A stretch of 64,000 nucleotides of DNA from Nannocystis sp. RBIL2 (GCF_026626745.1 NZ_JAPNJW010000002.1:1446151-1510150), one strand, 5' to 3'; counted from the first letter of the stretch, positions 12,670-60,060 are shown. Numbers and translations: made by a program. The notes: generated by a model from the sequence alone, not told the origin.

Positions 12670-13832
12670 ACCCGGCACGCCACCGAGCTCCAATCACCGA
12701 ATCATGGCACCGCCCACGCGAGCCTCCGTCGCCGGAATCATCATCGTCGTCGCCCTGCCTCCGCGCGCGATGAGGCCTCACACGATCGTCTCCGGAAGAC
12801 GCACGCAGCCCGAATCGTGAATCGCGTCTGTCGGCGGGCCAGCCCTGACCGTCGAATAGACGCTCCTGTCGTCGTCACGCCCCGGACCCGCGCGCCCATG
12901 CGCGAGCGATTTTTTTTCGACCGCGCGCTGCGACAACGGATCCGTCCGCCTGTCATGCCCGCAGGAGGCCGGATCACGCCAGCGTCGTGCTCGACCGCGG
13001 CCTCCGCCTGCGCCACGTCGCGAGCCTGCGCGGCCGTCGACTGCATCGAGCGATACACCTGCACCTCGCTGCCTGACCTGCCGGAACCCCGTCATCCTCA
13101 TCGAGCACGAGCGACGAATCGCCCTGCCCGCTATCGCCATTCGTCATTCTGCGCTTGCCGATGCCCATTGCATGCAGCATCGCGTCAGCTCTCGTCGGCG
13201 CCCACCAGAATATCGGCGCATCGGGCATCCCGCGAGCACGATCGCCCCGATCCCCCATCACGACAATCACGGCACCGAAGCCGAGCACCGTCCCCGAAAA
13301 CATCATCGTCATCTCTCGCCACCCGAGTTCCCCGAGTCCTCACACCAATCGTCTCCGACAGACGCACGCCGCCCGGTTCGTGAAATGGCGTCTGTTCGGC
13401 GGCCAGCCCTGGCCGTCGAACAGACGCCTCGCGCTCTCCGCCAGGCAGCCTCTGCATCGAAGCCCACGACGGCGTGCGGGCCTCTCACGGCTGCAGCCGT
13501 GCCAGGGGTCCGGGGAAGCGGCGGCCGCGAATTAGAGGCGAGATGGGCGCGAGGAACGAGTGTCCATCTCGCCGGTTAACTCGCGGCCGCCGCTTCCCCG
13601 GACCCCCCGCGAGGCGCAGTCGGCAATATGCTGACCGCCGAGCCCCCCGCGCAGAATCCCTCACCCATTCACGAGCGCGACAGCGCCCCGACGATCGGGC
13701 CTTCCGCCCCCAATCGCCGACCCTCCGTGTCCCGCCACGCGCGCGATCTTGCCCACGGTCACCTGTCCGCCCGCAAACCACACGCCAGGGCGGCCGTGGT
13801 ACCTTGGGCGGCCCCGCTCGCGGCCCACGCCC

Positions 13833-19800: not shown

Positions 19801-22800
19801 AGGCCGACGGCCTCCCGCTGGACGAGCGGATCCCCCGCGTCCTGCAGCTCGCGCGCGACCTCGCCTACCGCGCCGACCGCTCGCTCGAGGCCATCCGCCG
19901 CCTCGAGGCGCTGGTCAAGGAGACCCCCGAGACCGCCGACGTCCACGCCGAGCTGATCGAGATCCTCCAGCGCGAGGGCCTGTGGGTCCGCGCCGTCGAG
20001 GCCCTGCGCTCCGCCGCCGAGGTCGTGCCCAACCCCGACGCGCGCGTGCGCTGCCTGGCCCGCGCCGCCACCCTCACCGAGGAGCGCCTCGGCCAGCCGG
20101 CCGCCGCGATCGCCGGCTGGTCCGAGGTCCTCGACCACAACCCCGGCGACCCCGACGCCCTGGTGCGCCTGCAGAGCCTCTACCTGCGCACCGAGCAGTA
20201 CGCCAAGCTGCTGCCGATCCTCGACCGCCGCCTGGCCCAGGTCGCGCCCGGCGACCGCGACGCCCGCATCGCCCTCCTCGTCGTCAAGGCCCGCGCCCTG
20301 CAAGAGGGCCAGGGCGACGAGGCCGCCGCGCAAGGGACCCTCGAGACCCTCGCCGCCGAGGCCCCCGAGAACGACGACGTCGTGCTCGGCCTGTCCCGCC
20401 TCTACCGCAAGGGCGGGCGCATGGATGACGGCGTCGAGATGCTGCGCCGGCGCCTGGCCGAGATCGTCAGCGACATGGAGGTCCGCGCCGAGCCGCTCGA
20501 CGAGGAGCCGCTGCCGTTCGACATCCCCGAGCCGGTCTCGCCGGCGCTGGCGGCCCGCCGCGTGCGCATCGCCGAGGCCCTGGCGACCGCCCTGGCCGAA
20601 GAGGCAGGTGACCCCCGCGGCGCGCTCGAGACCCTCGACGAGGCGCTCGCCGCCGCCCCGCCGGAGGCCGCGCTCGGCCTGCAGCAGCGCCGCGTCGCCC
20701 TCGCGCGGACCCTCGGCGACGACCGGGCCCTCACCGTCAGCCTCGCCGCCGTCGGCGAGCCCGACGGCATCCTCGAGGCCGCCGCGATCGCCCGCGACCG
20801 CCTGCACGAGCCCGAGCTGGCCGCCCAGCTGTTCACCCGCGTCCTCGCCGAGCTGGCCCCCGGCGCCCCGCAGCGCAGCCGCCGGCTGTCGCAGGCGATC
20901 GAGGGCCTGGTCGGCCTGCGCCTGGCCGCCGGCGACCTCGACGGCGCCGACGCCCTGCTCGACGCCCAGCTGGCCCAGATCGACGACCCCGAGATCCGCG
21001 CCCGGATCCTCACCGAGAGCGGCCGCGCCCTGCTGCGCGGCGGCCAGGAGCTCGCGCGCGCCCGCCAGCGCTTCGAGGCCGCCCTCGCCGCCGACCCCGA
21101 CTACGCGCCCGCGCGCCTGGCCCTCGGCGCGGCCCTCATCGACGCCGGCCTGCACGCCGAGGCCGAGGCCATCCTCGAGGCCGCGGTCGAGGCGTTCGGC
21201 CTCACCCGCGATCAGCCGCGCCTGGTCGAGGGCCTGCTGATGCTGGCGCACCTGTTCGAACAGACAGACCGCGCCAACGAGGCCTACCGCCGCCTCTCGA
21301 TGGCCCTGCGCCACGTCCCCGACGACCTCGAGATCCGCGCCGCCATGGCCCACAACCGCGCCGCCGCCGGCCGCCACCGCGACGCAGTCGCCGCCCTCGA
21401 GCCGGTCGAGCAGCGCCTCGCCGCCGGCACCCCGGTCCCGCCCGAGCGCGCCCCCGTGGTCGCCGACCTGCTGATCCTCGCCGCCGAGTGCGACGCCAAG
21501 CAGAACGCCCCCGCCGAGCGCCTCGCCGCTCGCTACGCCCGCGCCCTCGAGCTGGCCCCGCGCCACCGCAAGGCCCGCGCGGCCCTGGCCCAGCTGGCCC
21601 AAGAGTCAGGCAGGCTGGTCGACGCCGCCGAGCACACCCTCGCCCTCGCCGACCTCGAGCAGGACCCCGAGGCCCGCGGCCGGGCCCTGCTCGCCGCCGG
21701 CATGCTGTTCCACGAGGCCGCAGGGGCCGCCGCCGAGACCGGCGAGGAGACCGTCGTCAGCGTCTCCGCGCAGAAGATCCTCGGCGCCGCCTTCGACGCC
21801 GTCCAGGCCGGCCTCGCCCTGATCCAGCACATCCCGCACCCGGTCCTCGACCGCCGCCAGCTCGAGGCCGCCTTCTGGACCGCCGTCTCGCGCAACGCCG
21901 GCATCGCCCTCGGCTGCCTCGACCGCCTGCTGCACCACCCCGACCTGCGCGACGCCAAGCGGGCCGGCTTCCTGCTCGAGGGCGTCAAGATCGCCCTCCA
22001 GCGCGGCGAACCCGGCGACCCCGAGCGCGCGCTCGGCTACGCCCGCGCCGCAGTCGAGCTGCTGCCCGACGCCGCCGCCCCGATCCACGGCCTCGTCGAC
22101 GCCCTGCGGGCCGCTGGTACCGTCGACGAGATCGAGCCGGCGGTGCGCGCCTATCTGGCCAAGGACAGCGTCCAGAAGCCGCCTGGTGACCCACGCGAGG
22201 CCCGCGATCGCCAGCGCCTGCTGGTCCGCCTGGCCGACCTCGTGGTCCAGGCCGAGCCCTCGCCTGACCCGAAGGACAGCCGACCCGCGCAGGCGATCCG
22301 GCTGCTCGAGCGGGCCGCCGAGCTCGACCCGACCGGCCTCGGCCTGGCCCCGCGGCGCCAGCTCGCCCGGCTCTACGCCGACGAGAAGATCCAGGGCCCG
22401 CAGGTGCGCAGCAACTCCGACGCCCTGCTCCACCTCGACCCGCTCGACGAGGCCAGCCTGGCCGCGCTCGCCCGCCACTGCGCCGAGAACGGCGAGGAGG
22501 GCCGCGCCCACGCCATCCACCAGCTCTTGCGGATCGTCAGCCCCGGCCACGCCGAGGCCGGCGCCTTCCTCACCAGCCACGAGCTGCTGTCGGTGCGCAG
22601 CGGCAAGCTCGACCCCGCCACGGTCATCGACCCGGCCCCCGCCGACGCCGGCGTCGTCCCGGCTCTCACCGCGCTGTGGGAGGGCGCCGCCGAGCTGCTC
22701 GCCGAAGAGCTGCCGCGCCCGCAGTTCAGCGAGGCCGCCTGGATCGAGGCCGAGACCGACAAGGACACCCTCCTGTGGAAGGTCTGGACCGAGCTCGGCA

Positions 22801-23450
22801 CGCAGATGCCGGCCCAGGGCGTGCGCCTCGCCGACGTCGAGCTGCTCCCCGACATGCGCGTCGAGGGCGGCTGGACCAGCGTCTCGTGCGTGCACCCGCC
22901 GGTGATCCTCGTCGGCCCGGCCGCCCGCGCCGAGACCACCGCCCCGCGGCTGCGCTTCGCCCTCGGGCGCGCGATGTTCTTCACCCGCCCCGCCGCGATC
23001 CTCGTCTCCGGCCTGCCGAAGCCGCTGTTCGCCGGCGTCCTCGCGGCCGCCCTGCAGGCCTTCCACCCGCGCCACACCCGGCGCGTGCGCGCCCGCGACG
23101 AGGCCGACCTGGCCACGCGGCTCGGCCAGACCCTCGCGCGCAAGCTGCCGATCCGCCTGGCCCGCCAGCTCAGCACCGGCTTCAAGGAGCGCGAGCAGGA
23201 GGGCTTCGACAGCCGCGACTGGCGCGCATGGGTCCAGCGCTCCGGCGACCGCGTCGGCCTGTGCCTGTCGCGCAACCTCGGCGCCGCCCTCGACATCCTC
23301 GGCCTGCCCCAAGAGCCAGGCGAACGCAGCGCCGCCCTCAAGGCCCGCGCGGCCTTCGACGCCGACCTGCGCGACCTCCTGGTCTTCGCAGTCAGCCCCG
23401 CCTACGTCGGGGCCCGCCGCGCCCTCGGCTTCGAGGTCAAGTCGCGCTGA
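13833..23450 (+). CDS. Giant tetratricopeptide-repeat (TPR) protein, about 3,205 aa.
   Basis: A single 9.6-kb ORF with consistent GC3 bias. It contains dozens of TPR-like 34-aa units ('A...Y..LG....A...Y...L...P....A'). A central block has 4 tandem ~30-aa repeats '(V/F)DLADLEPVE' followed by a Pro/Ala-rich segment. An in-frame ATG at 13833 carries a short possible extension back to 13749. Confidence 0.85.
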   Translation: MPETAVAPKRQPSPHDLPCPLPPVAHGEPPELGAFRAKPSDDAFLKLRRAFREAENWSALATLLVVHAAAISGPPKVAELCVQAYELWYDRVKDKPQAAYALVRALQAEPHNSRAYEQLRKVYGELGSLDELATLLKFRLDHLRRHDRGAVPGALVELGKVDEQRCQVDEAIACYRAALEINPQERDASDQLIRLHLQAGAWLRVIDLINAELARTDNVRERDRFAALHLRLARIEAEQLENIPSAALHLQAALKANPDDVAALRAFGALYLGSGKASDEGLQKAADVFFRAAKLARSQGDDKIAYSLLRRAMSLRPDHHEAGNALAELLMAQEKWMELDDLYGAWIGYVTEADSYGLWLSRGELLETRLARREEARACYEQASRLERPGGDAWLRLEALLVELGDNHGLVSLYERWSEQDPGGLPTDKLLWAARVAREDLGDEERAAVSFYRVLEREPFNHEAFEGYKEHWRRKNNWSHLAGLILYQGDQALQMGGGPDSPLARSEFAEHFVELAEIYERRLGDLAGALDAWNRLALAYPNDWRPRDQIARIDKRARMLDANLATLEAELQRTVDPQRRFEVLRRLSQAHRERMTDPQRTIVLLQEMLALAPGHEGALRALAEMYERTGAYDQVIDLLRRQHDVTRSISQRVVLLRRMAELWQHELHSPREALWACEQILGYSPSDMDAVHRMQGLCAELGDAGGEYEALSRELGLVGDPAQRTRIIRRMADVADRKLQDPQRSAQAWTQLQAGDPHNLEVTDKLIAAYEALGNREELANLLGKAASSARTPPIRQLDYLMRLGHVAESSLGDADLACSAFERALRIHRDHRGATEALTRLYRNLGSWHGLAASLGTLQDMADSDEEALGIGWERAEVLADRLDNPAAAIRVLEQLSSNAAVGNRDVALKLLELYERAGQFDRLIRHAEILLLSALETDERRELFSLVARTYVVNLNAPHKAIAAFQRFMREEPDDGEGLKILGELQALAGDHQATLDTLGKRLESLTDAAQQVVTLEQMAEVCEFGLGHAKRALALLGRALGIAPGSRDLKQKIEAFAERHGMYKDLLVVYGERFTEMSGRAESRGQIDLCLGASATAEKKIGDPDLAFAWARKAYFVALRAGLDAGTVLDRLEGLAQAHGLWPQMLDVSEQELAFQEKTPNYGDYGTIALLMSAAEIARERLGDPARAIGYLQRAYKLRPDDDDLGRQIEALGEAHQMWQALIDLQELKLGRAKTGLGRFDACVAIAKIYERHLNDHKRAFQWLRRAETDLRPADPSLAEEAAGLMTELAQRHQLWPELADHHRGLALAKLQRNERGGLNQLKDSARIDYEKRQDPLAALRTLRLGVAYDRDGTALMPAIEAMAAKVDEKRSPDTPPTGALTLLSVTQQIIGQTVDPALKLSLLKRRAELRAGLGDTAGAIAEWLRALSLHPGSEEARFELDRLAERDNLWHLLLLAPASELAFGTGKAQQGKLLTQIAELYENCLGRPEYALRARIAAWKLQGDLPPETGELGPVHSKMWHLASLTGTYTAPPPARDPLLWPQIVPPELADRDQWRKLGLDPDTLAPRMAVKARKKEESSVMELDDLEEVSRPTAEIQLSELEPLEELRRGGGKEVVARPGKTVRSETHTNIVDLADLEPVELSATAVKIRAPRPARGETDIVDIADLEAVEASGSVSVRAAGLPRQESGVFDLADLEPIEDSLVGPAPKRPSAEVSGVLDLDEMLELDDDAPRPVAHKRSLPRPAAKPLKPTPPRPPGGKPVAKAPPPARRPAAPPPPSRPPEPVPAASLPPPPPVASRELIDAVTAGLPALPELDAPVLPGRPSASSAWHELAHAYASVVPASKSERAGLQRLLARLWDEGAGMPDAALERYEEALALVPDDAVALSGLVHMAERTADPERLIAALSRLLSDLTLPEHIVAYHLRLADLYEQTGQPERAEEQYRGVLAVSAKHLGALRSLAALHAKTGREREAAEASARLYDVEADGLPLDERIPRVLQLARDLAYRADRSLEAIRRLEALVKETPETADVHAELIEILQREGLWVRAVEALRSAAEVVPNPDARVRCLARAATLTEERLGQPAAAIAGWSEVLDHNPGDPDALVRLQSLYLRTEQYAKLLPILDRRLAQVAPGDRDARIALLVVKARALQEGQGDEAAAQGTLETLAAEAPENDDVVLGLSRLYRKGGRMDDGVEMLRRRLAEIVSDMEVRAEPLDEEPLPFDIPEPVSPALAARRVRIAEALATALAEEAGDPRGALETLDEALAAAPPEAALGLQQRRVALARTLGDDRALTVSLAAVGEPDGILEAAAIARDRLHEPELAAQLFTRVLAELAPGAPQRSRRLSQAIEGLVGLRLAAGDLDGADALLDAQLAQIDDPEIRARILTESGRALLRGGQELARARQRFEAALAADPDYAPARLALGAALIDAGLHAEAEAILEAAVEAFGLTRDQPRLVEGLLMLAHLFEQTDRANEAYRRLSMALRHVPDDLEIRAAMAHNRAAAGRHRDAVAALEPVEQRLAAGTPVPPERAPVVADLLILAAECDAKQNAPAERLAARYARALELAPRHRKARAALAQLAQESGRLVDAAEHTLALADLEQDPEARGRALLAAGMLFHEAAGAAAETGEETVVSVSAQKILGAAFDAVQAGLALIQHIPHPVLDRRQLEAAFWTAVSRNAGIALGCLDRLLHHPDLRDAKRAGFLLEGVKIALQRGEPGDPERALGYARAAVELLPDAAAPIHGLVDALRAAGTVDEIEPAVRAYLAKDSVQKPPGDPREARDRQRLLVRLADLVVQAEPSPDPKDSRPAQAIRLLERAAELDPTGLGLAPRRQLARLYADEKIQGPQVRSNSDALLHLDPLDEASLAALARHCAENGEEGRAHAIHQLLRIVSPGHAEAGAFLTSHELLSVRSGKLDPATVIDPAPADAGVVPALTALWEGAAELLAEELPRPQFSEAAWIEAETDKDTLLWKVWTELGTQMPAQGVRLADVELLPDMRVEGGWTSVSCVHPPVILVGPAARAETTAPRLRFALGRAMFFTRPAAILVSGLPKPLFAGVLAAALQAFHPRHTRRVRARDEADLATRLGQTLARKLPIRLARQLSTGFKEREQEGFDSRDWRAWVQRSGDRVGLCLSRNLGAALDILGLPQEPGERSAALKARAAFDADLRDLLVFAVSPAYVGARRALGFEVKSR

Positions 23451-30634: not shown

Positions 30635-30913
30635 GCTGCCGTCGAACCCGGCTGATCCGCTCAGCCCGCGGCGCCCTGTTGCAGCGCAGTGAACACCTTC
30701 GCACAGCGCAGCGTGGGAACCCCACGCAAGACGGAGGTGGGCGGCTCCACGTCGAACCGTTCCAGATCCGGCTCGCACACCACCGGCAAGCGGCGCCCAA
30801 ATCGCGCACGACCGCACGTTCGTGCATCCGGCATTCGCGCTCGAGGCCGCCGAAAAAAATCTGCCCTCGCCTTTGCAACACTCGCCCGCGCGGTGGCATG
30901 CCGGCGGTGAACG

Positions 30914-33900
30914 ATGACCCACTCCGGAGCGACCGCCGCTTTCGCGGACATGAATTGGCTGCAACGCCTGGCCGCCGCCCTCGCACGAGACGCCGACGAC
31001 GCCGCCGACCTCGTGCAGGACACGCTCGTGACCGCATGGTCCCACCCGCCGGCCGACGACGGCCAGCCGCTGCGCCCGTGGCTGGCGACGGTCCTTCGCA
31101 ACCGTTTCCGCATGCAGCTGCGCACGCAGGCGCGTCGCGAGCGGCGCGAGCAGGCTGGGGCGTCGACGAGGGCGATCGCCGCCGAGCCCGACCGGGAGTT
31201 GCTGCGCCTGGAGCTGCTCCGTGTGCTCCTCGCCGAGCTCGAGCGGCTCGCGCCCGAGGACCAGAAGATCATCGTCCGTAGGTTCTTCGAGGGTGAGAGC
31301 GCGGCCGAGATCGCCCGCGGGCTCGCCATTCCTGCGGCGACCGTCCGCTCGCGCCTCCACCGCTCGCTCCAGCGCCTGCGTGCTCGACTCGACGAGCAAT
31401 TCGGCGGGCGTTCGGCCTGGTGTGTCGTGGTCCTGCCCGCGCCTCACGGCGCGTCGCTCCCGTCCGCGAGCCCAAGCAGCTCCATGAGCATCGCCGCGAA
31501 AGTCATTCTCGTGACGAGCCTCGGCATCGTCGGTGTGGCCGGCTGGCTCGCGCTCACGGAGCCATCCCCGGCGGGGCCTCCCTCCGCGGGACCGACTGCC
31601 TCGCAAACCGTCCTGCGGTCTCCGGTGGAGGGACCGGCGAGGACGCCGATCGACCCGCGCCGTGCAGACCGGGCGGCCATCTCCGGGCACGTGCGCGATC
31701 CCGAGGGCCACCCGGTGCCGGCTGCGACGGTGTGCGCGGCGTCGTCGTCGGAGACGCTCGGCGCGTCCGAGCGGCGCGCGAGGCCTTGCACGATCGCGGC
31801 GGCGGACGGCTCTTATCGCCTGGACGGCCTGCTGGCAGTGCCGCATCGGATCACCGCGAGCGCGCCGCATTTCATCCCGCGGGCGCACCGGAGCGGCTCC
31901 GGGGCCCTGGCGCGCGAGCTGGTGCCCCTGCGCTTCGGGCAGGAAGAGCGTGGCATCGACATCACCCTGCTGCCCGGCGGGGTGAAGCTCGTCGGCATCG
32001 TGCGCGACCTCGGCGGCGGAGAGGTCGATGGCGCGCTCCTCGAAGCGGGCGACGCGGCCGGGCGCTCGGGCGCGGACGGCAGCTTCTCGCTGTGGGTCCG
32101 CCCGGGCGAGGTGCTGGTGACGGCGACGGCGGAGGGCTATGCGGACGCGCAAACCTCCGGACGCGCACCGGGATTGACGCTCGAGATCCTCATGATTCCG
32201 GAGTCGGTGCTGCTCGGCCGGGTGGTGCGCGCCGACGACGGGTCGCCGGTCGCGGGCGCCGAGGTGAGCGCGCTCAACGGCGGCGGCTGGGGTCGCCAAG
32301 GACCGGCCTTCACCGACGCGTCCGGAAACTTCAGGATCGACGCGTTGCGACCCGGTGCCTACAAGGCGCGGGCGCTGCATGACGAGGGATATGGTGCTGC
32401 GGAGGCGCTGGTGGTGCTCGGCCTCGGTGAAACCTCCGCGCCGGTGGAGGTCCGCATGCACCCGGCTTTCCTGGTCGAAGGGACAGTCGTGGTCGCCGGC
32501 GGGGGCACGTGCGATCGCGGCTCGATCATCCTCTCGGACCCCCAAGGCCAGCGTCATGCGACTATCTCACCCGACGGCCGGGTGCGGGTCCCGGGGCTGC
32601 TGCCCGGGAGTTACAAGGTGGACGTCCGGTGCGAAGGGTTCGTGTCGGCGCCGAGCTACCCGCCCCTGGCGATCGCCGACCGCAGCCTCCGCGAGCTACG
32701 CTGGGAGGTCCGACCGGGCCAGGCGATTCGCGGTACGGTCGTCGCTACGACCAGGGATCCCGTCACTGCGATGACGGTGACGGTGAACCCGCAGGTCGAC
32801 CCGAGCCGTTCGAATGCGCAGTCGACCAGCGGAATCGCAGAGGCCGACAACGCCGGACGGTTCGAGGTCAAAGGCCTGTTGCCGGGGCGCTATGCATTGC
32901 GCGTGTTCGCCGGAGATCCACCGCAGCTCCTCCAGGGGCCCGAAGTCGAGGTTCGTGACGGACATGACCTCGAAGACATCCGTATCGAGCTGCCGGCGGC
33001 CGGCGAGGTCCGTGGCGAGGTCCACGACGTCCACGGCCGCGCCATCCCCGGGGCGAGGGTCTTGCTGCGTGGGCCGACCTACGCGCAGACGACCAGCCTC
33101 GACGACGGGAGCTTCCGCCTCTCCGGCCTCGCTGCCGGCGCGTACCAGGCGAGCGTGAACAAGAGCTACCAGCCGCTGCGCATGCACGACGCCAAGGACG
33201 GCGAAGCGCCGCGCGTGGAGGTCGAGACCGGCGAGGCCGCTGTCCTCGACCTCGTCGTCGAGGCCCCGGACGGGAAGATCTCTGGACGGGTCGTGGATAG
33301 CGACGAGGCAGCGCAGGACGACGTCTTCGTCGAGGTCTTGCACGAGCCGGAGAGCGGCTCACCAGGGGCCACCTTGCGCGACATGCGGTGGAGCATGGAC
33401 CGCGGCCTGCGGCCGCGGATGACCGACGTCGACGGAAGGTTCGAGTTTGGCGACCTGCCTGAAGGGACATATACGCTCGTGGCCCACCGGCGTGACGGCG
33501 GCGAGGGGATCGTCGAGCGGGTGGCCGTGGGCAGCGAGGTCGTCGTCAAGATAGCCGCGCCGGGCTCGCTGGTCGGGCGGGTACGCTTGCCCGGCGGCGG
33601 CGGACCAGAGCGATTCTCGGTGGAGCTCCGCGATGCGGCGACCGGCTACCAGGTACGCGACAGCTTCTTCCGCACCGACGGGACGTTCGCGTTCCCGCAG
33701 GTGCCTGCAGGTAATTTCGTGGTCGCAGTCGAGGCGCCGGAAGGCGCGGGCAAGGCCGAGGTCGCGCTGGCGACGGGCGAGCGCGGACAGGTCGAGGTCA
33801 CGCTGGCGGGCCGCGTCACCGTCCGCGGCCGCGTGCTCGACCTCGACACCGGCGAGCCGGTGCCGGGAATGCGCGTGAAGTTCGGCGCGGAAGGGAGAGA

Positions 33901-34405
33901 GGCGTTCATCAGCTCGGCGGACCACGTCGACGAGCGCTCGGTGTCCGACGCGGACGGCCGATTCGAGGTCGCCGACGTGCCTGTCGGCCATGCGACGGTG
34001 ATCGTCACCGCCAGGAGCTTCGGAGCGACGAGCGACCACGAGACTATCTGGACGCGTGTACGGATCTCGAACGGTAGCGTGGTCGAACTGGCGCCGCTCG
34101 AGGTGCCGCGAAGCCGGCTTCAGCCCGGCGACGAGGCCGGCGAGCTCGGCATGACGATGCGACGAGACGTTCCGACCGAGGGAGCGGAAGCGCGGCCGCC
34201 GACAATCGCGTTCGTGCAGCCTGGCGGCCCAGCCGCGCACGCCGGGCTGCGGGTCGGCGACGCGATCGTCGCGGTCGACGGACATGACGTCACCGGCGAC
34301 CACGTGCATCGCTTCGATGCCCTGACACGGGTGCCCGTGGGGACCGAGCTCCGCCTCGAGCTCGAGCGTGGAGGCAGCGTCACGCTCACCGCCGCACGCC
34401 GATGA
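30914..34405 (+). CDS. ECF sigma-70 factor fused in one polypeptide to a TM helix, a large extracytoplasmic region with carboxypeptidase-regulatory-like (Ig-like) repeats, and a C-terminal PDZ domain.
   Basis: Region 2 'DLVQDTLVTAWSH...PWLATVLRNRFRMQLR'. Region 4 HTH 'LAPEDQKIIVRRFFEGESAAEIARGLAIPAATVRSRLHRSLQRLRARL'. Hydrophobic helix 'IAAKVILVTSLGIVGVAGWLAL'. Repeated ~80-aa beta-rich units of the form 'G.V.D..G.P..GA.V.......T.(D/A)GSFR..GL..G.Y'. C-terminal PDZ-like 'IAFVQPGGPAAHAGLRVGDAIVAVDG'. The frame is continuous with no stop. Confidence 0.75.
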   Translation: MTHSGATAAFADMNWLQRLAAALARDADDAADLVQDTLVTAWSHPPADDGQPLRPWLATVLRNRFRMQLRTQARRERREQAGASTRAIAAEPDRELLRLELLRVLLAELERLAPEDQKIIVRRFFEGESAAEIARGLAIPAATVRSRLHRSLQRLRARLDEQFGGRSAWCVVVLPAPHGASLPSASPSSSMSIAAKVILVTSLGIVGVAGWLALTEPSPAGPPSAGPTASQTVLRSPVEGPARTPIDPRRADRAAISGHVRDPEGHPVPAATVCAASSSETLGASERRARPCTIAAADGSYRLDGLLAVPHRITASAPHFIPRAHRSGSGALARELVPLRFGQEERGIDITLLPGGVKLVGIVRDLGGGEVDGALLEAGDAAGRSGADGSFSLWVRPGEVLVTATAEGYADAQTSGRAPGLTLEILMIPESVLLGRVVRADDGSPVAGAEVSALNGGGWGRQGPAFTDASGNFRIDALRPGAYKARALHDEGYGAAEALVVLGLGETSAPVEVRMHPAFLVEGTVVVAGGGTCDRGSIILSDPQGQRHATISPDGRVRVPGLLPGSYKVDVRCEGFVSAPSYPPLAIADRSLRELRWEVRPGQAIRGTVVATTRDPVTAMTVTVNPQVDPSRSNAQSTSGIAEADNAGRFEVKGLLPGRYALRVFAGDPPQLLQGPEVEVRDGHDLEDIRIELPAAGEVRGEVHDVHGRAIPGARVLLRGPTYAQTTSLDDGSFRLSGLAAGAYQASVNKSYQPLRMHDAKDGEAPRVEVETGEAAVLDLVVEAPDGKISGRVVDSDEAAQDDVFVEVLHEPESGSPGATLRDMRWSMDRGLRPRMTDVDGRFEFGDLPEGTYTLVAHRRDGGEGIVERVAVGSEVVVKIAAPGSLVGRVRLPGGGGPERFSVELRDAATGYQVRDSFFRTDGTFAFPQVPAGNFVVAVEAPEGAGKAEVALATGERGQVEVTLAGRVTVRGRVLDLDTGEPVPGMRVKFGAEGREAFISSADHVDERSVSDADGRFEVADVPVGHATVIVTARSFGATSDHETIWTRVRISNGSVVELAPLEVPRSRLQPGDEAGELGMTMRRDVPTEGAEARPPTIAFVQPGGPAAHAGLRVGDAIVAVDGHDVTGDHVHRFDALTRVPVGTELRLELERGGSVTLTAARR

Positions 34406-49724: not shown

Positions 49725-50227
49725 GGTCGGTTTCTCCGCCCACCAGTTTGATCGCGGTTGCACCGCGCGCTCGCCCGACTAGCGCCAGCAAACGGCGCCA
49801 GGCGCTCGTCACGGCCCTTGTCATGCCGTCGATTTCGGCGGCGCGTTCGCCATTCCCACCGTTCGCGCGCACGACGCAGCCCGATCGTACGAATCACGGG
49901 CGCAGCGGACTCGGCCGTGTGAACCGCCTCCGCCTCGGCCTCGGCGCCGTTCTGCCGGGGATGCGGGCGTGGAGACGGGGGTATCGCCTGGCCCGCAGGG
50001 GAGACACCGATCGTCGCAGCGCCCTTTCATACGCGTCATGCGAAACATCACCCGCCCTGCCGCGCTCGGCCTCCCTGCGCGTCCCGCCACGAATCATGCT
50101 TCGTGCGAATGATATACCCTCACGGGCTGCGGCGGCCGGACCGGCCACGCGCTCGTCGGAGGTTCGCCGCGCAGCGGCCATCGGCCGGCGGGGCGCCTCG
50201 GACACCGCGGACACTAAGGAGCATCGG

Positions 50228-53200
50228 GTGAACCTCAGCAGGGACGAGCAGCGCACGTCGCTCACCAAGCGGCTCACAGTCGCGATCGCCACGCCGATCG
50301 CCCTCCTGTTGCTGCTCGGCGTCGTCCTCGGCCGGCAGATCCTCCTGATGGCCGACGACGCCGCCTGGGTCAACCACAGCAACGAGGTCCTCTCGCAGGC
50401 CAACGCGACGATGCTCGAGATCGTCGATCAGGAGACCGCGCTGCGCGGCTACCTACTGACCGGCGATCGTCAGTACCTGGGCCCGTTCGAGCGGGCGCAC
50501 CCGGACGGCAAGTTCGAGCGCCTGCACGAGCTCATCGCCGACAGCGCCGCGCAGCAGGCCCAGTTCGATCAGGCCCACCAGCACTACCGCGAGTGGTACG
50601 CCACCTGCGAGGCCGCGCTGAGCGGCCACGACCTCGACCAGGCGCGCAGCCCCGCCGCCATGCTCGCGCGCAAGGCCCGGATGGACGACATCCGCGACGC
50701 GATGACCGTGGCCACCGACATCGAGAAGGACCTGCTGGTCGCGCGCGCCGTCGCCTCGGAGCGCTCGACCGCGATCGCCCGGTCCGCCTTCGTCGCGCTG
50801 CTCGCCGGCGTCGCCCTCCTGCTCGCGTTCCTCTCGCGCCGTCAGCTCGCCTCGATCGCCAGCACCTTCGGCACCGCCCTCGACGCCGAGCAGCAGGCCC
50901 GCGCCGCGCTCGAGGCCGAGGCCTGGATCCGCGAGGGTCACACGCGCGTCGCCGAGGTCGTGCAGGGCGAGAAGAGCACCGTGCAGGTCGGCCACGACTG
51001 CCTGGCCGCGCTCGCCGCCCACGCTGGCGCCGACGTCGGCGCCTTCTTCGTGCGCGACGGCGGCGACTGGGTGCGGCGCGTCGGCCTCGCGCTCGACTCG
51101 CGAGCCGCCGGGCCGGAGACCTTCGCCGCCGGCGAGGGCGTCATCGGCCGCGCCGCCGCCGGCGGCCAGGTCGTCGAGCTGCGCGACGCCGACGAGCTGC
51201 CCCTGCGCACCGGCACCAGCGAACGCTTCCCCGCCCACGTGCTCGTCCTGCCCGCGCGGGTCGACGGCGTCACCATCGCAGTGCTCGAGCTCGGCTTCCT
51301 GCGCCCGGCCGAGCCGCGCGTGCGCGCCCTGCTCGAGCGGATCGGCGAGACGGTCGCGCTCGCGGTCCGCAGCTCCGAGCAGAAGGAGCGGCTCGCCGCC
51401 CTGCTCGAGGAGACCCAGCGCCAGGCCGAGGAGCTGCAGACCCAGCAAGAAGAGCTGCGGGTGCAGAACGAGGAGCTCGAGCAGCAGACCCGCGCGCTCG
51501 AGGAGTCGCGGGCGCGCCTCGGCAATCAGCAGGCCGAGCTCGAGCAGATCAACGCCCACCTCGAGGAGCAGACGCAGGCGCTGCAGGCCGAGCGCGACAC
51601 CCTCACGCAGGCGCAGATCCAGCTCAAGCGGACCTCCGCCTTCAAGTCCGAGTTCCTCGCCAACATGTCGCACGAGCTGCGCACCCCGCTCAACAGCTCG
51701 CTGATCTTGGCCCGGCTGCTGGCCGACAACCGCCAGGGCAACCTCGACGCCGAGCAGGTCAAGTTCGCCGAGACCATCTACTCCGCCGGCAACGACCTCC
51801 TCACCCTCATCAACGACATCCTCGACCTGTCGAAGATCGAGGCCGGCATGCTCGACGTCCGGCCCGAGACCATCTCGCTGGCGCGGCTCACCGATCAGCT
51901 GACGACGACCTTCCGCCCGGTCGCCCGCGACCGGCGGCTCGCGCTCGACCTCGACGTCCAGCGCGACGTCCCGGGCGCCCTCCAGACCGATCCGACGCGG
52001 CTGTCGCAGATCCTGCGCAACCTGCTGTCGAACGCGCTCAAGTTCACCGAGCAGGGCGGCGTCAAGCTCACGGTGCGCGCCGCCGGGGCCGGCGCGGTCG
52101 CCTTCGACGTCACCGACACCGGCATCGGCATCCCGCCCGATCAGCAGGAGCTGATCTTCGAAGCGTTCCGCCAGGCCGACGGCACGACCAACCGCAAGTA
52201 CGGCGGCACCGGCCTCGGTCTTTCGATCTCACGCGACCTGGCGCGCCTGCTCGGCGGCGAGCTCACCGTCGCCAGCGTCGTCGGCCGCGGCAGCACCTTC
52301 ACCCTCACCATCCCCGCGCAGCTCGTCGCCCCCGGTTCGGCCGCGGCGCCGACCCTCGCGCCGCTCCCGAGCCCGACGCCGATCCCTCCCTTGCGTCGCC
52401 TCCCCGCGCCGCCGCCCCCGCCGCAGGCGCCGACCGCCGCGCGCTCGATCCTCCTCGTCGAGGACGACCCCGCGTTCGCCGGAATCCTCGCCGGCCTCGC
52501 GCGCGAGCTCGACTTCCACCCCCTCCTCGCCGACACCGCCGAGGAGGGCCTGGCGCTCGCGCGTCAGCAGCGGCCGAGCGCCATCGTCCTCGACGTCTCC
52601 CTGCCCGACCGCTCCGGCCTCAGCGTCCTCGACGCGCTCAAGCACGACCCCGCGACCCGGCACATCCCGGTCCACGTCATCTCCGCCAGCGACCACACCC
52701 GCATCGCCCTCGAGATGGGCGCCGTCGCCTACGCCATCAAGCCCGTCGTCCGCGACCAGTTGGTCGCGGCCCTGCGGCGGCTCGAGTCGAAGGCCGCGCA
52801 GTCGCTGCGGCGGGTCCTCGTCGTCGAGGACGACGTCGTCCACCGCGAGAGCACCTGCAAGCTGCTCGCGGCCGACGACGTCGAGACAGTGCCGGTCGGC
52901 ACCGCCGACGACGCGCTCCGCGCGTTGCGCACCACCACCTTCGACTGCATGGTCCTCGACCTCAGCCTGCCCGACAGGTCAGGTTTCGAACTCTTGCGGG
53001 AGATGGCCCAGGGCGAGCAGTACGGGTTCCCGCCCGTCATCGTCTACACCGGCCGGGCGATCAGCCGCGTCGAGGAGCAGGAGCTCGGGCGCTTCTCGCA
53101 GTCCATCATCATCAAGGGCGCGCGCTCGCCGGAGCGGCTGCTCGACGAGGTCACCCTGTTCCTCCACCAGGTCGAGACCAGCCTCCCGCCCGAGCGGCAG

Positions 53201-53611
53201 CGCATGCTGCGGGACGCTCGCCACCGCGACGCGGTGTTCGAGGGTCGGCGCGTGCTCGTCGTCGAGGACGACGTCCGCAACGTGTTCGCCTTGACCAGCG
53301 TGCTCGAGCCGCGCGGGGCCAAGGTGGAGATCGCGCGCAACGGCAAGGAGGCGCTGCAGCACCTGAAACTCAAGCCGGGCGTCGACCTGATCCTGATGGA
53401 CCTGATGATGCCGGAGATGGACGGTCTCACCGCCACGCGGGCGGTCCGCGCCGACCCTGCGACCGCCAAGATCCCGATCATCGCCCTCACCGCCAAGGCC
53501 ATGGCCGACGATCGCGCCAGCTGCCTCGCCGCCGGCGCCAACGACTACATCGCCAAGCCGCTCGACGTCGACAAGCTGCTGTCGCTGGCGCGGGTGTGGA
53601 TGCCCAAATGA
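50228..53611 (+). CDS. Hybrid sensor histidine kinase: CHASE3, GAF, Q/E-rich coiled coil, HisKA, HATPase_c, and 3 receiver domains.
   Basis: GTG at 50228 with 'aaggag' 6 nt upstream. TM helix '[16 protein letters not shown]'. CHASE3-like '[26 protein letters not shown]'. H-box '[10 protein letters not shown]'. N/G boxes 'LLSNALKFT', 'DTGIGI' and 'GTGLGLSI'. Three REC blocks, each with 'D...(L/M)D' and a Lys. Confidence 0.85.
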
Positions 53612-54423
53612 CGACGTCGCCCGACCCCGAGCTGAGCGCGCTGCTCGACGCGGTCTACCACCGCTATCACTACGACTTCCGCGGCTACGCCGAGGCCTCG
53701 CTGCGCCGGCGGATCGGCGCCGCACTGACCCACCTCCGCTGCCCCTCGCTCGCCGAGCTGCGCGAGCGCGTGCTCGCCGAGCCGCGCGGCTTCAGCGAGC
53801 TGCTCCGCTTCCTCACCGTCCAGGTCAGCGACCTGTTCCGCGACCCCTCGTATTATCGATCGCTCCGCGAACGCGTCGTGCCGTACCTGCGCACTTATCC
53901 CTCGCTCAAGGTGTGGGTCGCCGGCTGCGCCACCGGCGAGGAGGCCTACTCGCTCGCCATCGTGTTCGCCGAGGAGGGCCTGCTCGACCGCACCCTCATC
54001 TACGCCACCGACATCCACCCCGAGAGCCTGCGCGCCGCCGAGGCCGGCGTCTACGACCTCGAGCGCTTCGCCCGCTTCTCCGACAGCTACCGCCAGGCCG
54101 GCGGGCGCGGCTCGCTGTCCGACTTCTACACCGCGCAGTATTCCTCGGCGATCCTCGACCGTCGGCTCAAGCAGGCGATCCTGTTCTCCGACCACAGCCT
54201 CGCCACCGACGTCGCCTTCGCCGAGGTCGAGCTGGTGTCGTGTCGCAACGTCCTGATCTACTTCGACCGCCCGCTGCAGGACCGGGCGATCGGCATCTTG
54301 CGCGACTCGGTGCGGCGCAAGGGCTTCCTCGGCCTGGGCGCCAAGGAGACCCTGCGGTTCTCGGCGCACGCCGAGGCGTTCACCGAGCTCGTCCCCGAGG
54401 ACCGGATCTATCAACGGCGGTAG
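53608..54423 (+). CDS. cheR: CheR-type protein-glutamate O-methyltransferase.
   Basis: The ATG overlaps the HK stop (ATGA). CheR N-domain 'YHYDFRGYAEASLRRRI'. SAM-binding 'LKVWVAGCATGEEAYSLAI'. 'CRNVLIYFD'. Confidence 0.85.
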   Translation: MTTSPDPELSALLDAVYHRYHYDFRGYAEASLRRRIGAALTHLRCPSLAELRERVLAEPRGFSELLRFLTVQVSDLFRDPSYYRSLRERVVPYLRTYPSLKVWVAGCATGEEAYSLAIVFAEEGLLDRTLIYATDIHPESLRAAEAGVYDLERFARFSDSYRQAGGRGSLSDFYTAQYSSAILDRRLKQAILFSDHSLATDVAFAEVELVSCRNVLIYFDRPLQDRAIGILRDSVRRKGFLGLGAKETLRFSAHAEAFTELVPEDRIYQRR

Positions 54424-54426
54424 ACC

Positions 54427-55023
54427 ATGGCGACGCGCAACATTCACATGATCGTGATCGGCGGCTCGTCGGGGGCGCTCGACGCTCTCGCCGCCCTGCT
54501 GCCGGCGCTGCCGCCGGGTTATCCGCTGCCGCTGGCCGTGGTCCTGCACCTGCCGCCGACCCAGCCCAGCCACCTCGTCGAGGTCCTGCGAACCAAGGCC
54601 TCGCTGCCGACGCGGGAGCCCGACGACAAGGAGCCCATCGTGCCCAGCACGGTCTACGTCGCCCCGCCGAACTACCACCTGCTCGTCGAGCGCGGGCGCA
54701 GCTTCTCGCTCTCGGTCGACCGCCCCGTGCTGTTCTCGCGGCCCTCGATCGACGTCCTGTTCGAGTCGGCCGCCGACGCCTTCGGGCCGCACCTCGCCGG
54801 CGTCCTGCTCAGCGGCGCCAACGAGGACGGCGCCCGCGGCCTCGGGCGCATCGCCGAGGCCGGCGGCCTCACGATCGTCGAGTCGCCGGCCACCGCCGCG
54901 GTCCCGATCATGCCGGCGGCCGCGCTGCAGCGCGTCGCCATCGACCACGCCGTGCCGGCGGCCGCCATCGGCACCTTGCTCGCGCGGCTCGCCGCGCCCA
55001 CGCGCTCCGGGGAGGCGACATGA
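54427..55023 (+). CDS. cheB: CheB-type methylesterase, catalytic domain only (no receiver domain).
   Basis: 'IVIGGSSGALDALAALLPALP' (catalytic Ser region). 'LVVLHLPP'. 'GVLLSGANEDGARGL'. Only 198 aa. It starts 4 nt after the CheR stop. Confidence 0.8.
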   Translation: MATRNIHMIVIGGSSGALDALAALLPALPPGYPLPLAVVLHLPPTQPSHLVEVLRTKASLPTREPDDKEPIVPSTVYVAPPNYHLLVERGRSFSLSVDRPVLFSRPSIDVLFESAADAFGPHLAGVLLSGANEDGARGLGRIAEAGGLTIVESPATAAVPIMPAAALQRVAIDHAVPAAAIGTLLARLAAPTRSGEAT

Positions 55024-56492
55024 ACCTCGAACCGATCAACTTCCTCCTCGTCGACGACACCGAGCAGAACCTCATCGCCCTCGAGGCGCTCCTGCGGCGC
55101 GACGGCCTCGACATCCTCACCGCGCGCAGCGGCTTCGAGGCGCTCGAGCTGCTGCTCGTCCACGACGTCGCCCTGGCCTTCCTCGACGTGCAGATGCCGG
55201 GGATGGACGGCTTCGAGCTGGCCGAATTGATGCGAGGCACCGAGCGCACCAAGAACGTGCCGATCATCTTCATCACCGCCGGCGCGCGCGACAGCGAGCG
55301 GGTGTTCCAGGGCTACGAGTCCGGCGCGGTCGACTTCCTGCACAAGCCGATCGACCCGCGGGTGCTGCGGAGCAAGGCCGACGTGTTCTTCGAGCTGTCG
55401 CGGCAGCGACGCGACTGCACCCACGCCCTGCGTCTCAACGAGATGTTCGTCGGGATCCTCGGCCACGACCTGCGCACCCCGCTGTCGGCGATCCAGACCG
55501 GCACCGAGATCCTCGAGCAGCTGGTGATCGACGACGACCAGCGCGGCATCTTGCGGCGCATGTTCGTCTCGAGCCACCGCATGAACGAGATGATCGAGCA
55601 GCTGCTCGACCTGACGCGCGCGCGGCTGGCCGGCGGCCTCGGCTTCGCGCGCGCGCGCCAGCGGGTCGACGTCGTCGAGCTCGTGCAGCGCGCCGTCGAC
55701 GAGCTGCGCACCACGCATTCGCAGCGCGAGGTCCGGGTCGAGACCCTCGGCGACACCGTCACCGCCGGCGACCCCGACCGCCTGGTCCAGGCGCTGTCGA
55801 ACCTGATCGGCAACGCGATCCAGCACGGCCACGCGGACGGCCCGATCGGCATCCGCGTGTTCGAGGACGGCCACCAGATCGCGGTCGAGATCCGCAACCG
55901 CGGCGTCATCCCGACCGAGCTCGTGCCGGTGCTGTTCGACCCGTTCCGCGGCCGCGACCACTCGCCCTCGCGCACCAACGCCCGCGGCCTCGGCCTCGGC
56001 CTCTATATCGCCCAGCAGATCGCCCAGGCCCACGGCGGCACCGTCTCCGTGATCTCGAGCGACGAGACCGACACCGTGTTCACGCTCCGCCTGCCGCGCG
56101 CCTCGCCCGAGCCCACGCTCGCCGATCGCCCGCATCGCGGCCACACCGTGCTGATCGCCGACGACGACGAGGCGACCCGCGAGAGCCTGCGCGAGGCCTT
56201 CGCCGGCGAGGGTTACGCGACCATGACCGCGGCCAACGGGCGCGACGCGCTCGATCAATTGCTGCACGCGCGGGTCAAGCCCGACCTCGTCATCCTCGAT
56301 CTGGTGATGCCGCTGCTCGAGGGCGGGCAGGTCTATCAGGCCATGCAGGCCGTCCCCGAGCTGGCGCGGATCCCCGTGATCGTGTCGACCTCCGATCCGG
56401 CCCGCGCCCCCGCCGGCACGATCCTGATCCCCAAGCCGGTCAAGCTCGGCCGCCTGCTCGACACCGCCGCGCGCCTCGTCCGCTCGCCCTGA
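55020..56492 (+). CDS. REC-HisKA-HATPase_c-REC hybrid histidine kinase / response regulator.
   Basis: The ATG overlaps the CheB stop (ATGA), with 'ggagg' upstream. N-terminal REC 'FLLVDDTEQN...FLDVQMPGMDG'. H-box 'GHDLRTPLSA'. 'LIGNAIQHG' and 'GLGLGLYIAQQIAQAHGG'. C-terminal REC 'VLIADDDEATRE...DLVILDLVMP'. Confidence 0.85.
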   Translation: MNLEPINFLLVDDTEQNLIALEALLRRDGLDILTARSGFEALELLLVHDVALAFLDVQMPGMDGFELAELMRGTERTKNVPIIFITAGARDSERVFQGYESGAVDFLHKPIDPRVLRSKADVFFELSRQRRDCTHALRLNEMFVGILGHDLRTPLSAIQTGTEILEQLVIDDDQRGILRRMFVSSHRMNEMIEQLLDLTRARLAGGLGFARARQRVDVVELVQRAVDELRTTHSQREVRVETLGDTVTAGDPDRLVQALSNLIGNAIQHGHADGPIGIRVFEDGHQIAVEIRNRGVIPTELVPVLFDPFRGRDHSPSRTNARGLGLGLYIAQQIAQAHGGTVSVISSDETDTVFTLRLPRASPEPTLADRPHRGHTVLIADDDEATRESLREAFAGEGYATMTAANGRDALDQLLHARVKPDLVILDLVMPLLEGGQVYQAMQAVPELARIPVIVSTSDPARAPAGTILIPKPVKLGRLLDTAARLVRSP

Positions 56493-58414: not shown

Positions 58415-59698
58415 TCACTCCGGGCGCTCGCTCGGCCCGTCCTGCCCGCTCGCCGGCTCGTACAGCGGCAGCGCCAGGCGGAAGCAGGCCCCGGGCCCGT
58501 CCGCGTCCTCGACCACCAGCGTGCCGCCGTGCGCCTGCACGATGCTGCGCGCCAGGTAGAGGCCGAGGCCGAGGCCGAACGACTTCGGCCCGAGGGCGAA
58601 GCGGTCGAACAGCGTCGGCAGGAGCTCGACGGGGATGCCGGGCCCGAAGTCGCGGACGCGGACGAGGCTCCAGTTGGCGCCGTCGAACCGGTCGCGCCGG
58701 ATCGTCAGCGACAGCCCCGCCCCCTCCGGAGAGTGGGTGATCGCGTTGTGCAGCAGGTTCTCGAGCGCCTGCCTCAGCGCGTCGGGGTCGGCCCGCGCCA
58801 TCACCTGCGGCGGCGCCTCGATCTCGATCGCCTGCCCGCCGACGGCGAACAGCGCGGCGGTGCTGCGGGTGAGCTCGACGAGGTCGACGACCTGCAGCCG
58901 GAGGTCGAACAGGCCGCGCTCGATCCGCTCGACGCTGAGGAGGTTGGACAGCACCCGCCCCAGCCGCTCGACCCCGCGGCGCGCCTTGCTCAGCTCGTCG
59001 ACGTCCGCCGCCCGCGCCTCCGCCTCCGCCCGCACCGTCAGCACGTCCAGCCGCGCGGCCAGCGGCGCGATCAGGTTGCGCAGGTCGTGCGCCACGACCG
59101 ACACCAGCTCCTCGGCCGTCCGCTGGCGCGCGCGCTCGGCGGCCACGCGGGTGGCCTCCTCGACCAGCTCAGCGCGGTGCGTCACCACCCCGACCCAGTG
59201 GGCGACTGCGGCCAGGAACTCGAGGTCGCTCCAGCGGTACTTGTTCCGGGTCGCGGCCGTCACCATCAGCACCCCGCGGCGCTTGCCTTGCACCTCGATC
59301 GGCACTGCGATCGTCGACTGCACCTTGAGCCCCTCCTTGATCCCCTGCAGCTCGCCGGCGTCGGCCTGCACGTCGTCGCAGAAGTAGCGCTCGCCGGTCT
59401 GGAACACCTCGACGGCGCGGCCCCCGTTGCTCATCGGCACGCGATCGAGGCCGAGCGCGCGCTGGCGGCGGGACATCGGCGAATCATTGGTCCCGAGCGC
59501 CACCAGCGAATCGCGTGCGGCGTCGTGCAGGAACGCGTCGACCTTGTCCGTCTCGACCACGGACGCCACGACCTCGCAGGCCTCGACGAGGGTCTCGCGG
59601 ACCGACGTGACCGGCAACGCGAGCAGCCGCGTCAGCGCCACGAACAGCGGCGGTTGGGGCGCGCAGGCACTGGTGGCAGTGTCGAGCTGTTCGATCAT
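58415..59698 (-). CDS. GAF-domain sensor histidine kinase.
   Basis: ATG at 59698 confirmed on the sequence. GAF-like N-terminus. H-box 'AHDLRNLIAPL'. N box 'LLHNAITHS'. G boxes 'DFGPGIP' and 'GLGLGLYLARSIVQAHGG'. Confidence 0.85.
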   Translation of the reverse strand: MIEQLDTATSACAPQPPLFVALTRLLALPVTSVRETLVEACEVVASVVETDKVDAFLHDAARDSLVALGTNDSPMSRRQRALGLDRVPMSNGGRAVEVFQTGERYFCDDVQADAGELQGIKEGLKVQSTIAVPIEVQGKRRGVLMVTAATRNKYRWSDLEFLAAVAHWVGVVTHRAELVEEATRVAAERARQRTAEELVSVVAHDLRNLIAPLAARLDVLTVRAEAEARAADVDELSKARRGVERLGRVLSNLLSVERIERGLFDLRLQVVDLVELTRSTAALFAVGGQAIEIEAPPQVMARADPDALRQALENLLHNAITHSPEGAGLSLTIRRDRFDGANWSLVRVRDFGPGIPVELLPTLFDRFALGPKSFGLGLGLYLARSIVQAHGGTLVVEDADGPGACFRLALPLYEPASGQDGPSERPE

Positions 59699-60060
59699 GG
59701 AGCGCACGGGCGTCGTGCAGGCCTGACCGTAGGGCCAACCTCGGTGGATGGCGAGCCGCGCTCCCCGGCGGCCGGCGGGCGCAGGGAGGAACTCCGCCCG
59801 CCGAATCATCGCGGGGATGCGGGGGGTCCGGGCGCAGGAGACGCCCCGTCCGCCGCTTGCGCCACCGCCGGGAAAATCCCCGGGGGACCGACGCCGCAAA
59901 CCGACTGCCCTGCTGGATCGATCTGGCCCGCCGCGCGCCCCGGCCGCCTCGGCTCCCTGCTGTGATTGCCTCGAGGACATGTCCGATCGACCCTATCGTA
60001 CATGGCCGAACCCGCCGGCCCTCGCTGGCGCGCCCACGAATCGCCCGCATACTGCGCGGG

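Follow-up and report, generated by a model that had tools for sequence, protein, structure and literature searches.

A conserved glutamate-pair coil in a CheR/CheB-linked histidine kinase is a candidate methyl-accepting element

CheR, a methyltransferase, and CheB, a methylesterase, are very commonly encoded away from any chemoreceptor: what do they modify there? The question is posed by an operon in a 64,000-nucleotide stretch of DNA from Nannocystis sp. RBIL2 (NZ_JAPNJW010000002.1:1446151-1510150; this whole stretch, with a GC content of ~72%, is called the window below). At positions 50228-56492, four co-directional open reading frames (ORFs) are read on the plus strand, encoding a hybrid histidine kinase (HK1, the first kinase), CheR, CheB and a second histidine kinase (HK2). 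Translation and Pfam domain calls confirm these four genes and their domain make-up as given in an original prediction from the DNA sequence alone, and the junctions are also as described there: HK1-cheR and cheB-HK2 overlap by ATGA (53608-53611 and 55020-55023), and at the cheR-cheB junction a TAG stop is followed by ACC and then by ATG, leaving a 3-nt gap. The same prediction had proposed a Gln/Glu-rich coil of HK1, just before the dimerization and histidine phosphotransfer (DHp) domain, as the substrate of the two enzymes. Our reading, to which we assign a probability of roughly 55%, is that a methyl-accepting (N/Q)-E-E-L coil, located outside chemoreceptors and kept at a constant heptad phase relative to the DHp histidine, gives two-component kinases in at least 14 phyla a chemotaxis-style adaptation by way of dedicated CheR and receiver-less CheB enzymes; with equal assurance, this reading takes in the other occurrence of the element, in which it is fused to CheR in CheR-PAS-coil proteins. 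In HK1 itself, sequence comparison suggests that CheR and CheB probably act on the conserved glutamates at heptad positions b and c of the coil, presumably by methylation and its reversal.

The domains of HK1 run in the order TM1 (first transmembrane segment), CHASE3, TM2, GAF, long coiled coil, HisKA, HATPase_c and three receivers (REC). The Gln/Glu-rich coil is present as quoted, at residues 393-452, and the heptad motif (Q/N)-E-E-L is near-invariant in it, position a being N or Q, b and c both E, and d L; the E-E pairs of HK1 are E394/395, E401/402, E408/409 and E415/416. From residue 386 to the H-box, d is occupied by Leu in 12 of 14 consecutive heptads and a is mostly polar. Among 62 homologues, E409, L410, N414 and L417 are invariant, and conservation is 90% or more at E401, E402, L403, E408, E415 and E416. 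The consensus, LLExTQxQxEELQxQQEELRxxNEELExQ, is often followed by a second copy, QQEELxQxNEELEE. Identity to the window HK1 is 50-67% over the coil versus 22-38% over CHASE3 and GAF of the same proteins; on the sensor side of the kinase, no other element is conserved as well as the coil. Kinases adjacent to CheR/CheB vary in their sensors (CHASE3-GAF, 4HB_MCP_1-GAF, about ten HAMP domains plus GAF, or CHASE3 alone), and whatever the sensor, they retain the Glu/Gln-rich segment, with a nearly invariant H-box downstream of it. When proteins were searched with nothing but the coil, just seven fragments came back, the word index being probably poor on low-complexity sequence.

The coil is also kept in register with the catalytic histidine. 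In 130 motifs from 73 distinct kinases, the distance from the a residue of the motif to the phospho-accepting His ranges from 26 to 96 residues and is always 5 mod 7; in HK1, H482 lies 68 residues after N414. Every insertion or deletion in the coil must therefore amount to a whole number of heptads. An AlphaFold2 model built on the 62-sequence alignment (mean predicted local distance difference test score, pLDDT, 87.9) has the GAF fold in place with pLDDT above 90, and predicts one continuous helix through the last GAF helix, the coil and DHp helix 1. In histidine kinases generally, signalling-helix coiled coils connect sensor domains to the DHp, and the HK1 coil is likewise a long parallel coil in fixed heptad phase with that domain. 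Unlike generic signalling helices, the HK1-type coil carries a near-invariant E-E-L motif, the presence of which tracks CheR/CheB.

Contrary to what the original prediction had implied, the arrangement is not new: the window operon corresponds, in Nannocystis, to the Pseudomonas cfcABCD(E)/bmsA cluster and is a Myxococcota member of an already known cassette. In P. putida KT2440 the cluster was named cfcABCDE and includes CfcA (PP_3761), CfcB (CheR3), CfcC (CheB) and CfcD; CfcA is a CHASE3/GAF hybrid kinase required to activate the diguanylate cyclase CfcR, and the CfcD receiver is similar to that of CfcR (PMC4951495). The context of P. alkylphenolica bmsA and of its orthologues in Pseudomonas is described as kinase, CheR, CheB and hybrid kinase (PMC8175716). 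The gene order common to the window and the cfc/bms cluster is thus CHASE3/GAF hybrid kinase, CheR, receiver-less CheB and REC-kinase, with HK1 as the counterpart of CfcA/BmsA and HK2 as that of CfcD, and a P. fluorescens locus matches the window at 52% in CheR, 54% in CheB and 52% in the coil, with the NEEL motif in both. The window differs from the Pseudomonas cluster in the extra C-terminal receiver of HK2 and in its myxobacterial host, and the Pfam scans of window ORFs brought up no CfcR-like REC-GGDEF-EAL gene. In Pseudomonas, characterisation has been confined to CfcA and CfcR.

A survey with one genome per species, seeded by the CheB protein alone, gave 58 loci (~1.1 Mb) from at least 14 phyla. 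Its taxa are Myxococcota, Alpha-, Beta- and Gammaproteobacteria, Verrucomicrobiota, Planctomycetota, Bacteroidota, Armatimonadota, Cyanobacteria, Spirochaetota (Leptospira), Nitrospirota, Bdellovibrionota, Desulfobacterota, Gemmatimonadota, Acidobacteriota and Actinomycetota. CheB is directly adjoined by CheR in nearly all of these loci, and a kinase with the coil motif adjoins CheR/CheB in ~46 of the ~50 that have enough flanking sequence. In six homologous contexts annotated with Pfam (three CheB-seeded and three kinase-seeded), the cassette is intact and the flanking genes are unrelated; the REC-kinase downstream of cheB is retained in related loci. No significant match to methyl-accepting chemotaxis proteins (MCPs), CheW or CheA was found within ~10 kb in the 58 loci, using E. 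coli sequences as queries. The gene-neighbourhood check that the original prediction had advised, when run at this breadth, shows that the MCP-less linkage of kinase, CheR and CheB holds.

The window itself is equally devoid of chemoreceptor components, in agreement with what had been noted for the vicinity of the operon. Genuine E. coli Tar, Tap, CheW and CheA (as P1-P2, P3 and P5) gave no tblastn match in six frames across the 64 kb (best E = 0.34), and Pfam found no MCP, CheA or CheW family among 18 further window ORFs, which include a LysR regulator, a TSP_3 repeat protein, dehydrogenases, other GAF kinases and a 3271-aa TPR protein. A few ORFs predicted from third-position GC content lie outside the Pfam scan and inside the six-frame search. 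Both HK1 and HK2 have a HisKA-type DHp, unlike the architecture of CheA. The hallmarks of a canonical chemosensory pathway, namely an MCP with MCPsignal, CheA together with CheW, and a CheB with an N-terminal receiver, are thus missing here.

To what extent, then, do the E-E pairs go with the enzymes? In the 58 loci, the EEL motif is confined to the kinase adjacent to CheR/CheB, to CheR fusion proteins, and to one kinase beside such a fusion. The converse sample was a metagenome scan seeded by DHp patterns only, which gave 80 homologous kinases, of which those with enough flank were counted. Kinases with the motif had CheR/CheB adjacent in 18 cases and not adjacent in 5; kinases lacking it had CheR/CheB adjacent in 3 cases and not adjacent in 36 (Fisher's exact p = 1.7e-8, uncorrected for shared ancestry). 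The median number of in-register E-E pairs at b and c was ~3.5 with CheR/CheB versus 0 without (Mann-Whitney p = 2e-6, also uncorrected for ancestry). One locus scored as not adjacent (L118; 4860-7516, minus strand) has a motif-less homologous kinase, after which one CheR match and three CheB matches lie on the opposite strand.

The element is also found on CheR itself. Five loci of cyanobacteria and actinomycetes encode fusion proteins in which CheR is joined to PAS_10, then to tandem NEELETT/NEELQST heptads and then to another PAS domain. These CheB / CheR-PAS-coil-PAS ('CheBR') fusions and HK1 have in common the heptad N-E-E-L-x-(S/T)-T, with N at a, E-E at b/c and L at d. In the fusions the heptads lie on the CheR polypeptide and the gene order is cheB then cheR, whereas in the window they lie on the kinase and CheR is separate. 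In Chlorogloeopsis (L049; 12604-13983, minus strand), a histidine kinase with EEL heptads directly adjoins a CheR-PAS-coil fusion gene.

These data bear on whether the coil could be conserved merely as a signalling helix, with CheR and CheB directed at HK2, a receiver domain or an unlinked protein. A fixed register and a long helix would be conserved for signal transmission anyway, and the coil is off the MCP consensus (see below), as such an explanation would allow. We nevertheless consider it rather unlikely, because in kinases lacking CheR/CheB the coil persists in its register and exactly the E-E pairs are lost, the sequence reading QKEL-NEQL, QSEL-NEQL or QDEL-NAEL versus QEEL-NEEL elsewhere, and because the element that travels with CheR in the fusions is the heptad array itself. 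HK2 is an unlikely substrate since it has no Glu/Gln-rich segment, its fraction of E+Q being ~0.10 versus 0.32 in the HK1 coil.

Both enzymes retain the catalytic residues of their families, CheR being of the protein-glutamate O-methyltransferase type and CheB of the methylesterase/deamidase type. CheR scores 115.8 bits against PF01739 and 41.9 bits against PF03705 (cut-off 27 for each), and its nearest solved structure is B. subtilis CheR 5FTW (E = 4.5e-23). Its residues R78, E112, D135 and Y218 align with R98, E129, D154 and Y235 of E. coli CheR, and these catalytic and S-adenosylmethionine (SAM)-binding columns are invariant across 54 homologues. CheB scores 173 bits against PF01339; S14, H41 and D134 align with the E. 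coli triad S164, H190 and D286, and the Ser-His-Asp triad is invariant across 56 homologues. Pfam and alignment agree that CheB begins at its catalytic domain and is receiver-less, as had been recognised from the sequence. With the REC-less CheB as query, more than 5,700 homologues were scored, and the best 120 are all ~190-215 aa with a CheB_methylest domain alone; one Nannocystis sp. ILAH1 protein is 100% identical to it. The two proteins score far below the thresholds of the chemotaxis equivalogs of NCBIfam, CheR reaching 56.1 bits against NF007902 (cut-off 435) and CheB 126 bits (cut-off 342). By these scores they are a divergent group relative to the chemotaxis enzymes, which is compatible with a different site specificity. 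This divergence is also all that could be said for CheR and CheB being non-catalytic, as degenerate scaffolds or coil-binding proteins, and nothing specific favours such a role; since Ser-His-Asp of CheB and Arg, Tyr, Asp and Glu of CheR do not vary in any homologue examined, we give it almost no weight.

Since the enzymes are true members of their families (CheR, CheB_methylest) and their active sites are intact, they might instead be orphan adaptation enzymes acting in trans on chemoreceptors encoded elsewhere, their position serving co-expression only. MCP genes are possible beyond the window in the large Nannocystis genome, and one of the 58 loci, from Rhizobium sp. Root482, has an ORF with a sub-threshold MCPsignal match ~5 kb from the cassette, the sole MCP-like signal in the survey. 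Action in trans seems quite improbable in view of the synteny with the coil kinase in at least 14 phyla, the lack of MCP, CheW or CheA within ~10 kb, the covariation of the E-E motif with CheR/CheB, the fusion of CheR to HK1-type heptads in other proteins, and scores far under the equivalog cut-offs. A chemotaxis role of P. putida CheR3/CheB has in addition been ruled out (PMC4951495). Judged by sequence comparison, the coil is tied to CheR/CheB by four independent lines, namely specificity, covariation, fusions and enzyme integrity, and the proposal that the coil is their substrate has gained these in place of the resemblance to MCP sites on which it was originally founded.

That resemblance, to 'EEQTxA'-like methylation and deamidation pairs, was not recovered. 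The MCP consensus [ASTG][ASTG]-x-x-[EQ][EQ]-x-x-[ASTG][ASTG], attributed to Alexander & Zhulin 2007, finds all four sites of Tar, and has no match in the HK1 coil or in any of 39 related coils; alignment of the coil profile to Tar by hhalign gave a probability of 0.09%. Homology of the coil to MCP adaptation helices was rejected on these grounds, and a coil free of consensus methylation heptads is what the original prediction itself had named as telling against its argument. These two results also count against a methyl-accepting coil as such, and several others do so too. The covariation statistics ignore phylogeny, and many motif-less kinases are closely related to one another; the five motif kinases with no adjacent CheR/CheB and the three of the reverse kind are exceptions to the rule. 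Biochemical evidence of methylation of any histidine kinase was not found in the searchable literature, in which a full-text search for the peptides NEELEEQ, QQEELR, SNEELQ and TNEELE returned no paper. Finally, P. putida mutants in the other cfc genes retain the CfcA-dependent crinkly phenotype (an unpublished remark in PMC4951495), so CheR/CheB are not required for output in that condition; this fits a modulator role without proving one.

If the coil is nonetheless methyl-accepting, HK1 would sense through its periplasmic CHASE3 and cytoplasmic GAF domains, and the signal would run along one long parallel coiled coil into the DHp helix that bears H482. The modified residues would be the solvent-exposed Glu-Glu pairs that occupy b and c in three to four heptads in succession, with CheR methylating them using SAM and CheB demethylating them and possibly deamidating neighbouring glutamines. 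Because there is only one hydrophobic core position per heptad, the coil should be marginally stable. Were as many as eight charges neutralised on each chain, the packing of the coil could shift and, via the fixed register, so could the DHp; the change in charge would affect how stable the coil is or how it is rotated, thereby resetting the kinase/phosphatase balance. The receiver-less CheB is not switchable by phosphorylation, so feedback would have to come from a preference of the enzymes for certain conformations of the coil. Conformation-dependent access to the substrate already contributes to adaptation in E. coli chemotaxis. The outcome would be a chemotaxis-like adaptation loop inside a two-component kinase, with the receivers of HK1 relaying phosphate to partners, for example to the receiver of HK2.

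Compared with adaptation of E. coli Tar/Tsr, such a loop would rely on enzymes of the same two families, their catalytic residues being the same as well, and the proposed target would likewise be Glu/Gln pairs one heptad apart on the exposed face of a helical coil that controls a kinase. It differs from the E. coli system in that the window has no MCP, CheW or CheA, CheB has no receiver and the candidate sites are off-consensus. For the HK1 coil, a dimer of two helices that connects directly to the DHp is also expected, whereas an MCP forms a four-helix bundle that acts through CheA.

Were this to hold, reversible glutamate methylation would be a general sensitivity setting for two-component kinases, beyond chemoreceptors, and the Pseudomonas CfcA/CfcR pathway of biofilm formation and cyclic di-GMP would gain a layer of adaptation. 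What makes the hypothesis testable is its signature of E-E-L heptads in phase with the His, covariation with CheR/CheB, and fusion to CheR; the analysis singles out the four E-E pairs of HK1 (E394/395 to E415/416) and their CfcA equivalents as directly testable residues.

Table 1. Positions of the operon, its domains and the candidate coil in the window
Feature	Window coordinates	Strand	Length or residues	Basis and remarks
Shine-Dalgarno-like AAGGAG	50217..50222	+		Direct sequence reading; 6 nt upstream of the HK1 GTG start
HK1, hybrid histidine kinase, predicted membrane-bound	50228..53611	+	1127 aa	Translation, Pfam
HK1 predicted transmembrane segments			aa 16-40 and 187-203	Judged from sequence
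HK1 CHASE3	50360..50746	+	aa 45-173	PF05227, E = 3.4e-24; flanked by both hydrophobic segments
HK1 GAF	50996..51367	+	aa 257-380	PF13185 (GAF_2), 30.6 bits
HK1 predicted single continuous alpha-helix	51314..51724	+	aa 363-499 (137 residues)	AlphaFold2, fragment residues 148-284
HK1 candidate methyl-accepting segment, four heptads	51404..51487	+	aa 393-420	Heptad reading
HK1 HisKA			aa 473-540	Pfam
HK1 phospho-accepting H482	51671..51673	+	aa 482	Within H-box SHELRTP
HK1 HATPase_c	51986..52321	+	aa 587-698	Pfam, E = 1.9e-31
HK1 three receivers	52445..53608	+	~aa 740-855, 862-982, 1008-1127	Pfam Response_reg, E = 8.9e-60; boundaries judged from sequence
CheR	53608..54423	+	271 aa	Pfam CheR_N + CheR; start overlaps HK1 stop (ATGA)
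CheB, receiver-less	54427..55023	+	198 aa	Pfam, CheB_methylest alone
HK2, soluble REC-HisKA-HATPase_c-REC	55020..56492	+	490 aa	Pfam; start overlaps cheB stop (ATGA)

A scan for promoters and terminators gave no signal above chance, as expected for a genome of ~72% GC. PF28019 was tried as a dedicated family for the coil and dropped: it is HmpF, a faint coiled-coil match on some homologues.

Several surveyed loci depart from the usual layout. In three Leptospira loci (L018, L037 and L038), the order is permuted to CheR, CheB, kinase, the sensor is 4HB_MCP_1-GAF in place of CHASE3-GAF, and the coil has two full QQEEL..NEELEEQ copies. In the Rhizobium sp. Root482 locus (L006; 2138-4597), a second CheB_methylest domain is encoded on the minus strand, ~5 kb upstream of the cassette. 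The ORF with the sub-threshold MCPsignal match (20.5 bits, cut-off 34.6) overlaps it on the plus strand and is 664 aa long, and a ParA-like ATPase adjoins. In a long-read metagenome-assembled genome (L146, 10593-11879), CheR_N, CheR and CheB_methylest lie on one 428-aa product, which is either a true CheR-CheB fusion or a frameshift artefact.

Elsewhere in the window, a soluble GAF-HisKA-HATPase_c kinase of 521 aa is encoded convergently on the minus strand at 58415-59980, ~2 kb downstream of HK2; it was not caught by the H-box or coil-motif scans. An AAA_16-GAF-GAF-HisKA-HATPase_c protein of more than 1500 aa (2-4540, plus strand) is cut by the window start. The TPR protein mentioned above is a single 3271-aa ORF (13635-23450, plus strand) with a third-position GC of 0.97, consisting largely of TPR repeats. 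A stop-to-stop ORF at 30911-34405 (plus strand) combines N-terminal sigma-70 regions 2 and 4 with eight CarboxypepD_reg repeats and a C-terminal PDZ domain; it could represent either a genuine fusion or a pair of genes read as one.

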